This document shows, one piece after another, positions 19,400-22,300 of a DNA stretch of 64,000 nt. Source of the DNA: an uncultured Thermoplasmata archaeon (GTDB taxonomy: Archaea; Thermoplasmatota; Thermoplasmata; UBA10834). Under the pieces are notes generated by a model. The model ran no database searches. It was not told the origin of the DNA and saw only the letters and a program-made list of their open reading frames with translations. Position 1 is the first letter of the stretch, and each line of letters starts with the position of its first letter. The stretch is taken from the NCBI GenBank assembly GCA_963705355.1, contig OY970070.1, positions 91,056 through 155,055 of the forward strand. Reading direction: 5' to 3'. A program made the translations under genes and the position numbers.

Positions 19400-22300
19400 G
19401 TCGGCATGTTGGTTAGCGACTACAGCGCTTAGTGGCCGCGGACTGAATGTCTCGGCGTACCTTGACACTTACATCCCGGCTCTATCAACGCCATCATGTA
19501 ATGGCGGCTGTAAGATGCCTCGTTTTCGGGGTAGCTTCAAGCTTAGATGCTTTCAGCTTTTATCCACTATCGCGTGGCTGCTCAGCATTGCCTTGCCAGA
19601 CAACTGATAGACTAGAGGCGACGAATCCTCGTTCCTCTCGTACTAAAGGATCCTTCCCGTCAGGCATCAAAACACTTCCAGCAAAAAGCAACAAACCTGT
19701 CTCACGACGGTCTGAACCCAGTTCACGATCCCTTTTAATGGGCGAACAACCCCACCCTTGGCAGCTGCTGCACCACCAGGATAGGAAGAACCGACGGCGA
19801 AGTAGCAAGCCTCCAGGTCGATATGAACTCTTGCTGGAGACGACTCAGTTATCCCCGGGGTAACTTCTCTGTAATCACTGGCCCCCATTTGTGAGGCACA
19901 GTGGTTCGCTAGGCCCTGATTTCTCATCGTGGTTCATTGTTGGGCTGAACCACGTCAAGCCGGCTTTTGCCCTTGCACTCTTCGGTAGATTTCTGACCTA
20001 CCTGAGCCGACCTTTGGGCGCCCTTGTTACCTTTTTGAGGGCGTGGCGCCCCACCCAAACTGCCCACCTACCGGTGTCCATCCGAAGATGTAAGTGATAC
20101 GAGTCCAAGAGGGCGGTGTTTCATGTTTGTCTCGGAACTGACCTAGCGGTCAGCCCTGGTAACGACTCCCGCCTACGCTACACATTCAAACTCATACCAC
20201 AACGACAGGTTGCAGTAAAGCTCCACGGGGTCTTCGCTTTCAGCTGGAAGATAACGGACAGTGCTCCGTTAAAGTAGGTTTCACCGGCTTCGACGCGGGG
20301 ACAGTAGAGCTCTCGTTGGGCCTTCATGCAAGTCGCCAATTAAGCGACAAGGTATTACGCTCACTTCTGTTGCTTTCGCGACCTCCGATTGCTCGAAGGC
20401 GGACCATGATTTCTCATGATCTCCGCATGTCGCCATGCGGGTCGGACTATATCTTCGCCATCAGTTGGCGTCCGGCGCATAGTCTCTGAGGATTCCAGAT
20501 CATCGATCTGGCCTTTCCTGCTGATTACCTGCACTCACGCATTTTCACTCATCGAGTAGCGTGAGATTCTCAGGCGTCCCAGCATATGGCCGAATTTTAC
20601 TAAGGCAACGCAGTCACCTTAAGAGGGTCATAGTTACCCCCGCCGTTTAACGGTCCTTCTTCCCCTTGAAAAGGGTTTTCAGATACCGTCACTGGGCAGG
20701 TTTCAGCGGCAATACGCATCCTTTCGGACTAGCTGCCACCTTTGTTTTGGTTAAACAGTCGGGGCTCCCTTGTCACTGCGACCAGCTCATCACTGAGCTG
20801 GCACCACTTCTCCCTAAGTTACGTGGCTAATTTGCCGAGTTCCCTCGCGTCAATTAACGCCGACAAGCCTTGGTCTTCTCAACCAGGGGCACCTGTGTCG
20901 GATCTTGGTACGAACACCACAGTTGTTTAGCGCACTCCTTTTCACGGGCACCGGGGATAGGCTGAAGAGGGCCTTCGCCCTCCTACTCGTGATTTCCCCA
21001 GGTTCTCACCGTTACGGTTCTTCCCCAGGATATACACTTGAACAGATTGGCGCTCCTGCTCAACTTACCCAGATGCGTCCGAGTGCGCGCAGAGACTGCA
21101 GTGGTGCAGGAATATTAACCTGCTGGCCCTTTCGGTGTTCTCGATTAAGGAACACCTTAGGATCGACTAACCCTCGACTGACGAACATTGTCGAGGAACC
21201 CTTGCCCCTACGGCTGAACGGATTCTCACCGTTCTTTGCTGCTACTACCACCAGGATCCTCATTCGAATGCGGTCCATTCGATCTCAAGACCGAACTTCT
21301 GCCCGCACACGACGCCCCCCTACCAGATCACCTTTCGGTGCTCTCAAGTATCGGTGGCTGACTTAGCCCCGTCCATTTTCAGGGCCCTTAATCTTGACTG
21401 GTGAGCTGTTACGCTATCTTTGAATGATGGCTGCTTCTAAGCCCACATCCCAGTTGTCTGAGACTAAGGACTCCTTTTGCCCGTTCACACTTAGTCAGCA
21501 CTTAGGGACCTTAACTTGAGGCTGGGTTGTTCCCCTTTTGCGTATGGAGCTTACCCCTCATACGTTCACTCCCAGAGTCTTCAGTGACGACAGGTTCGGA
21601 GTTTGGCAAGGCACCGACGGATTTCTCCACCTAAATGCCTAATCGGTCGCTCTACCCCATCATCGACCTCGTCTGAGATCTACCTGCGAGTAGTTTCGGG
21701 GGGGACCAGCTATGTCCAGTTTAGATTGGCCTTTCACCCCTAGACGCGGATCATCCCAATGATTTGCACCTCAACACGGGTTCGGTCCTCCACCCAGGTT
21801 TCCCTGGGCTTCAACCTATCTGCGCCTAGATCAACTGGCTTCGGGTCTCTCACCGATGACTACAGGCGAGCCCACCTCGTCCCTGGCCCTTGCGGGTTGC
21901 GGACTTGTCGGTTTCCCTGTGGTTGCTTGGTTGTCCAATTAACCTCGCCATCGGTCCGAACTCCCTGGCCCGTTATTCGAAACGGATAATACGACGTCGG
22001 TCCACTCTTGCGAGCTTCGTCCCTTGCACGCCGTATATTAAAGTCACCATCTGGTTTCAGGCTCTTTGCACCTCCCGCTAAGGGTACTTTTCAGCTTTCG
22101 TTCACACTACTACTGCACTATCGGTCTCGGGTCGTATTTAGGGTTGGGAGCAAATGGCTCCCGACTTCTCACGCCATATCCAAGGCGCAATACTCTAGAA
22201 CATCCAGAATCATCTTTCCCGCGTATCCCTACAGGGCTTTCACCCTCTATGGCACGACATTCCAGTCGATTTCGGGTTAACGAGTTAAGATGTACCGGAG

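Follow-up and report, generated by a model that had tools for sequence, protein, structure and literature searches.

A total of 39 archaeal group I introns, all of them from metagenomes, were reported by Nawrocki, Jones & Eddy (2018, NAR 46:7970; PMC6125680). The commonest archaeal site for these introns is position 1931 of the large-subunit (LSU) ribosomal RNA, denoted LSU/1931 or L1931, where introns of the IB4 type form the largest class, and half of the 39 introns carry LAGLIDADG genes (PMC6125680). Examples are IB4.1 of 'Ca. Nitrosotenuis uzonensis', which is 281 nucleotides (nt) long, and IB4.24 of a Micrarchaeota metagenome-assembled genome (MAG), which is 248 nt long; the phyla given in Table 1 of that study do not specify Thermoplasmata, and 'Euryarchaeota' is given for four of the entries (PMC6125680). 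Here we describe a 254-nt insert in the 23S ribosomal RNA (rRNA) gene of an uncultured Thermoplasmata archaeon, located on contig OY970070.1 within the stretch of 64,000 nt that was analysed, referred to below as the window. The insert is very probably a group I intron of the L1931 family which lacks an open reading frame (ORF) and which interrupts the sole 23S gene of a non-methanogenic Thermoplasmatota archaeon. It resembles the archaeal IB4 introns at LSU/1931 in its host gene, in its insertion point and in the size of the ORF-less copies (about 250-300 nt). Both ORF-less and LAGLIDADG-bearing copies are found in the family to which the window genome belongs, and the archaeal introns are homologous to that of the window by covariance model R1, which is described below. 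The window intron differs from them in its host, a non-methanogenic Thermoplasmatota family, where it is found in a closed genome with a single 23S gene.

L1931 is also a site of bacterial and organellar LAGLIDADG introns (Haugen et al. 2007, PMC1995217). The bacterial L1931 introns are described there as 'very similar to IC1 but lacking P2', and the ORF of the bacterial introns at L1917 and L1931 starts in a peripheral loop and continues through paired regions P7, P3 and P8 into P9 (PMC1995217). Thermotoga introns are presented as self-splicing in the title of a further report (Nesbo & Doolittle 2003). The window intron shares with the bacterial L1931 introns the insertion site, an IC1-like P7, a complex P5 and the absence of P2. 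The bacterial introns are 654-700 nt long as against 698 and 704 nt for two endonuclease-bearing relatives of the window intron, which have the same ORF layout; the window copy itself differs in having no endonuclease gene and in its archaeal host.

A further comparison can be made with the LSU intron of Tetrahymena thermophila, which belongs to subgroup IC1 and is inserted at L1925, in the neighbouring region of 23S rRNA and 6 nt from L1931. The segment comprising joining region J6/7, P7 and P3 (CAGAGACUAUGCGCCGGAC versus CACAGACUAAAUGUCGGUC) and the segment comprising J8/7 and P7 (AAGAUAUAGUCCGACC versus AAGAUAUAGUCGGACC) appear to be nearly identical in the two introns, and the bulged A that precedes the G-C pair of the guanosine site appears to be shared as well. 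Relative to the Tetrahymena intron, the window intron has neither P2 and P2.1 nor the three-way P5abc extension, is about 160 nt shorter and is located at a different site.

The host gene, which lies on the minus strand, was identified by an RF02540 match of 2693 bits. A single LSU match was observed in the genome, which consists of one closed contig of 1,975,906 bases, and all ribosomes of the organism must therefore derive from the interrupted gene. No mcrA gene was found in the host genome and hence the host is considered to be a non-methanogen. No 16S or 5S genes were found within the 64-kb window around the 23S gene; a stand-alone 23S gene is an arrangement typical of the unlinked rRNA organisation of Thermoplasmata.

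On the sense strand, the gene reads ...GUAACUAUGACCCUCUUAAGGU up to position 20616, followed by the 254-nt insert and then by AGCGUAAUACCUUGUCGCUUAAUUGGCGACUUGCAUGAAGG. The first base of the insert is G20615 and its last base is G20362, and the conserved exon sequence AGCGUAAUACCUUGUCGCUUAAUUGG... picks up again at position 20361. The archaeal LSU model aligns both flanks and leaves a block of 255 nt unaligned between them. In a BLAST comparison with 60 related genomes, seven intron-less species were found in which query bases 65 and 320 abut; an intron-less site can be written as GACCCTCTTAAGGT directly followed by AGCGTAATACCTTG. Since the flanks are directly joined in these seven species, the limits of the insert are set at 20362 and 20615. 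An earlier note on this DNA, referred to here as the original prediction, had given exactly these limits, had held that the two flanking blocks are normally contiguous and had named alignment to an LSU covariance model as a check; the results above bear it out on each count. The insertion follows the base homologous to U1931 of Escherichia coli 23S rRNA: in E. coli rrlB, base 1931 is the last base of the sequence ...CCTAAGGT and AGCG comes next, and the flanks in the window match this arrangement.

The insert is matched by the group I intron model RF00028 (Intron_gpI) at positions 20423-20625 of the minus strand with 61.4 bits (E = 1e-13 to 3e-15), where the gathering score of the model is 50 bits, and the alignment spans model positions 1-253 of 253. 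Starting from this alignment, a fold was drawn on the window copy (Table 1). It comprises a complete set of elements from P1 to P10 in which all 85 of the 85 pairs are canonical, with P7 and P3 forming a pseudoknot. P2 is absent, being deleted in the RF00028 alignment and having no counterpart in the drawn fold. The 5' splice site is marked by a U·G wobble between U20616 and G20606. In P7, a G and a bulged A are followed by a G-C pair, formed by G20484 and C20445, as in IC1 introns; this is the arrangement expected for a guanosine site, and the pair is a candidate for that role here. In addition, the unconstrained minimum free energy fold of -106.4 kcal/mol (z = -5.25 against shuffled sequences) recovers P3, P4, P5, P5a, P5b, P6a, P8, P9, P9.1, P9.2 and the P10 pairing. 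The original prediction had listed five hairpins in the insert. Four of these correspond to helices that covary, namely P5a, P6a, P9 and part of P9.1, whereas GC-GAAA-GC, the last of the five, lacks conservation in the alignment of the relatives and was therefore omitted from the drawn fold. The likeness between the first 45 or so nucleotides of the insert and the downstream exon had been read as a diverged copy of that exon. This duplication was rejected because the similar stretch is more readily accounted for by the internal guide sequence, whose pairings with the two exons make up P1 and P10.

The same elements are maintained among the relatives of the intron. MAFFT, run without structure guidance, was used to align nine copies from related species; in this alignment 96.8% of the cells are paired, with 18 compensatory pairs, as against 33-38% in slid controls. 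Covariance model R1 was built from this alignment and was used to align 22 full-length L1931 homologues, taken from the host class and from the loci of a core-pattern scan, which represent Thermoplasmatota, Woesearchaeota, Micrarchaeota, Nitrososphaerota, Methanosarcinales, a Nitrospiraceae bacterium and bacteria of the candidate phyla radiation. In this set 96.2% of the cells are paired and 59 of the 85 pairs show compensatory changes (slid controls 32-40%), where the pair counts of the nested helices are inflated because the alignment was fitted to them. In P3, P4, P5a, P6a and P8, 97-100% of the cells are paired and compensatory changes are numerous. Compensatory pairs were counted in P3 (5 of 6), P4 (4 of 6), P6a (6 of 6), P8 (4 of 4), P9 (6 of 7), P9.1 (8 of 8) and P9.2 (7 of 7). 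P7, P9.0 and P10 are located outside the R1 model. Among the 22 homologues, 98.7% of the cells are paired in P7, where G-C has replaced an A-U pair in seven of the sequences, and the corresponding values are 97.7% for P9.0 and 78.6% for P10.

The elements at the splice sites are conserved in a similar manner. The U·G pair of P1 is kept in all 22 homologues. For example, in the bacterial copy L067 the exon sequence CUAAGGU has become CUAUGGU and the guide has changed in step from GCCUUAG to GCCAUAG. In the genome of a sister family (G039), P10 has been rebuilt with another sequence, GCGUAAU with AUUAUGC, as read by eye. The co-change of exon and guide and the rebuilding of P10 matter only to splicing. 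The ending GUG/AGCG is invariant in 11 copies from the family, and GUG ends the intron in 21 of the 22 homologues, the remaining copy (L049) apparently ending in GGU.

Both the fold and the site of insertion are well established, and we infer that the element is catalytic and is spliced in vivo. In the proposed mechanism, the intron would fold into its P3-P9 core within the pre-rRNA and the internal guide would pair with the 5' exon to form P1, placing the U·G pair at the cleavage site. An exogenous guanosine held in P7 would then attack after U20616. Subsequently, the terminal G20362 would take the place of this guanosine while P10 and P9.0 hold the 3' exon. Ligation of the exons would restore CUUAAGGU-AGCGUAAUACC just after helix 69 and release the 254-nt intron, such that the ligated sense junction from 20616 to 20361 would read ...CUUAAGGU-AGCGUAAU....

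Table 1. Coordinates of the host gene, the intron and its structural elements in the window, with two endonuclease-bearing relatives (positions in their own loci).
Feature	Position	Strand	Basis or remark
23S rRNA gene	19409..22593	-	RF02540, sole LSU match in closed 1.976-Mb genome
Group I intron, 254 nt, without endonuclease gene, L1931	20362..20615	-	RF00028; intron-less relatives
P1	5' exon UUAAGGU 20622-20616 with guide GCCUUAG 20606-20600	-	drawn fold
P10	intron UGCGUU 20612-20607 with 3' exon AGCGUA 20356-20361	-	drawn fold
Catalytic core overall	20444..20594	-	P3-P8
P3	20594-20589 with 20476-20471	-	UUCGGC/GCCGGA
P4	20584-20579 with 20524-20519	-	UGCUGG/UCAGCA
P5, P5a, P5b extended arm	20575-20527	-	drawn fold; P5a is the hairpin CUCACGC/GCGUGAG
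P6, P6a	20518-20490	-	drawn fold; P6a is the hairpin CCAGAUC/GAUCUGG
P7	20486-20479 with 20450-20444	-	G-(bulged A)-GACUAU/AUAGUCC
P8	20469-20457	-	drawn fold
J8/7	between P8 and P7 3' strand	-	GAAGAU; drawn fold
3' peripheral domain overall	20382..20442	-	P9.0 5' strand, P9, P9.1, P9.2
P9.0	5' strand AC 20442-20441 with GU directly before terminal G	-	3' part at 20362..20364
P9	20440-20423	-	GCGA loop; hairpin CCGCAUG/CAUGCGG
P9.1	20421-20402	-	GAAA loop; includes the hairpin CAUGA-GAAA-UCAUG
P9.2	20399-20382	-	GCAA loop
Terminal G (omega-G)	20362	-	at 3' splice site
Endonuclease-bearing intron, 698 nt	L011 ~1563-2260 (G019:C12)	-	LAGLIDADG_1
Endonuclease-bearing intron, 704 nt	L012 (G025:C107)		LAGLIDADG_1

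Several points weigh against the interpretation of the insert as a functional L1931 group I intron. The inflation of the pair counts in the 22-homologue alignment reduces the weight of the nested helices, and the guanosine-site pair and the nucleotides of the J regions give no support from covariation because they are invariant in the 22 homologues. Its subgroup, given as IB4 or as IC1-like without P2, is a tentative placement made by homology and description. Furthermore, a precedent at this very site, the L1931 group I intron of Simkania negevensis, is termed 'unspliced' in the title of Everett et al. (1999), as given in the reference list of PMC1995217.

The Simkania precedent also favours the alternative that the insert, although derived from a group I intron, stays in the mature 23S rRNA and forms a folded 254-nt domain acting as an expansion segment. 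If this were true, all ribosomes of the organism would carry a folded RNA domain beside helix 69 at the subunit interface. However, the elements which serve splicing alone (the U·G pair of P1, the terminal G, P10, P9.0 and the guanosine-site pair of P7) are conserved, and an inert sequence would not be expected to keep guides that pair with the exons, whereas the guide in L067 covaries with its exon. In addition, the site is found at the subunit interface in the only 23S gene of the genome and the close relatives manage without an insert. An expansion segment is therefore considered unlikely and is disfavoured. Removal of the insert without ligation, by ribozyme hydrolysis or by RNases, would leave a 23S rRNA fragmented at position 1931. 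Side reactions of group I ribozymes are described as yielding intron circles and fragmented rRNA (PMC1995217), but conservation extends to P10 and P9.0, by which the 3' exon is aligned for ligation, and no processing stem of the fragmentation type was found at the junction. Because P1, P10, P9.0 and the terminal G are conserved, this outcome is unlikely as well, and we regard it as quite improbable.

Introns of the bulge-helix-bulge (BHB) type occur in 16S and 23S genes of Thermoproteota, where some are located in domain IV of 23S rRNA and some carry LAGLIDADG genes. An intron of this type, for which the tRNA-splicing endonuclease EndA would make the cuts and RtcB would ligate the ends, was the leading idea of the original prediction. 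The archaeal host and the position in domain IV would agree with it, and the two kinds of intron are alike in interrupting archaeal rRNA genes. Our scan placed a pair of 3-nt bulges around both junctions in all 16 registers and gave at most two of the four central-helix pairs, with 0-3 pairs in the flanking helices; the best register combines two of the four central pairs with 0-1 flanking pairs. This agrees with the earlier remark that a canonical 3-4-3 motif could not be drawn, and the BHB intron was rejected after the scan. In contrast to BHB introns, the window intron has a ribozyme fold, its sequence fits the group I model, and homologues at the same site are found in bacteria without EndA (L097 of Nitrospiraceae, L067 and L084), which makes splicing by EndA and RtcB exceedingly improbable. 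The original prediction was thus right to favour an intron but missed its class, which is group I and not the protein-spliced archaeal type. Its view that archaeal rRNA introns belong mainly to Crenarchaeota has to be qualified as well, as group I introns have been recognised as widespread in other archaea since 2018 (PMC6125680). An assembly artefact or contaminating sequence, which the original prediction had also allowed for, deserves next to no credence and is effectively refuted: rRNA regions are often misassembled in MAGs and nothing more specific speaks for it, whereas the genome is a single closed contig, the same insert is found at the same site in at least ten other independent assemblies with a graded divergence from 97% down to 74%, and the flanking exons are archaeal and continuous.

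The group I intron was observed to be patchily distributed in the family of the host. Within the host genus it is present in G000, G002, G010, G014 and G016, and it also occurs in G022, G029, G035 and G308 and in G039 of the sister family, while an intact site without intron was found in G009 of the same genus and in G023, G028, G030, G033, G034 and G036. Across the class, relatives of the intron were detected with R1 in 41 of 401 genomes (about 10% of those sampled), which belong to 11 of 105 genera. Outside the class, full-length L1931 introns were found with R1 in Nitrosotenuis and other Nitrososphaerota, Woesearchaeota, Micrarchaeota and Methanosarcinales at 157-259 bits. The core-pattern scan, in which a pattern of 16 bases was searched in genome contigs, matched at least 120 loci, and among the loci listed 71 hold a relative of the intron by nhmmer. 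Three matches labelled as Thermoplasmatota (L044, L083 and L085) were set aside as chance matches or as too distant.

In two related genomes (G019 and G025) the same intron carries in its P6 loop a single-motif LAGLIDADG_1 ORF which scores 88.4 bits. The frame starts in the 3' strands of P5 and P4, continues through P7, P3 and P8 into P9 and is closed by a UAA codon some 10 nt upstream of the 3' splice site. No intron-encoded homing endonuclease was found in the window copy, where the longest overlapping frame comprises 57 amino acids and none of the frames is a gene, so that the earlier statement that the insert has no ORF holds in substance. This longest frame (20361-20534, minus strand) shares 70% identity with the final 30 residues of the relatives' endonuclease, and it is most likely a by-product of the conserved 3' half of the ribozyme and not a gene. 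No other homologue of the LAGLIDADG gene of the relatives was found in the host genome, the ribozyme containing only the matching 30-residue tail frame.

Introns in this family usually diverge faster than the exons that flank them. For example, the copy in G002 is 94.9% identical to that of the window while its exons are 98.5-99.6% identical, and the corresponding values for G010 are 87% and 95-96%. For the same-genus copies of G010 and G016, the introns were found at 87% and the exons at 95-98%. The opposite was observed in G022 (G022:C8, JAHIRF010000012.1; loci L004/L123), which belongs to the same family as the host but to a different genus: here the intron is 96.1% identical to that of the window and the exons are only 91-93% identical. 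As the intron is more conserved than its exons, the comparison suggests that it has recently passed laterally from one genus to another, and so similar a copy outside the host genus indicates that the intron is occasionally transferred by recombination. The intron has probably entered these lineages and moved among them by means of the LAGLIDADG-bearing copies. The window copy would have lost its endonuclease gene or would never have had one, and since the gene is absent, this copy is likely to persist mainly by vertical descent.

Some further inserts were noticed during these searches. In locus L159 (G159:C90), two adjacent 23S group I introns are located at 1293-1539 and 1575-1809 with a micro-exon between them. 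Such tandem introns are apparently placed at L1923 and L1931, and they were also seen in G377:C7 and G129:C45 of the same class. Among the Acidimicrobiia MAGs from the pattern scan (L046, L066 and L093 being examples), at least three intron-like matches per locus were observed. Related introns are also located at the extreme 3' end of the 16S gene in three other genera of the class (L155 1576-1804, L156 1559-1793 and L157 1593-1827, all on the minus strand), a position that resembles the SSU/1498 site of the small-subunit rRNA (PMC6125680). Finally, an insert of about 735 nt is found at or beside the same 23S site in a genome of the same order (L160 1333-2069, G038:C4). It contains a LAGLIDADG-like ORF of 185 amino acids that includes the stretch LLGIIDAESCF and shows weak matches to the intron model of 24 and 23 bits, with no RF00028 match at the gathering score; it is probably a more distant group I intron that bears an endonuclease.

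In the literature we found no paper on group I introns in Thermoplasmatota and none in which an archaeal group I intron was shown by experiment to splice. For the most part the finding agrees with what was already known, as group I introns at LSU/1931 have been on record for many archaeal phyla since 2018 and for bacteria and organelles since the 1990s. What is added is the placement of the L1931 family in a non-methanogenic Thermoplasmatota lineage. As the only 23S gene of a closed genome is interrupted, the production of ribosomes in this organism should depend entirely on the removal of the intron, which would make it well suited to a clear test of group I splicing in archaea. The sister species, in turn, form a compact natural series for the cycle of gain and loss of homing introns, comprising empty sites, ORF-less copies, LAGLIDADG-bearing copies and one intron that is more conserved than its exons.

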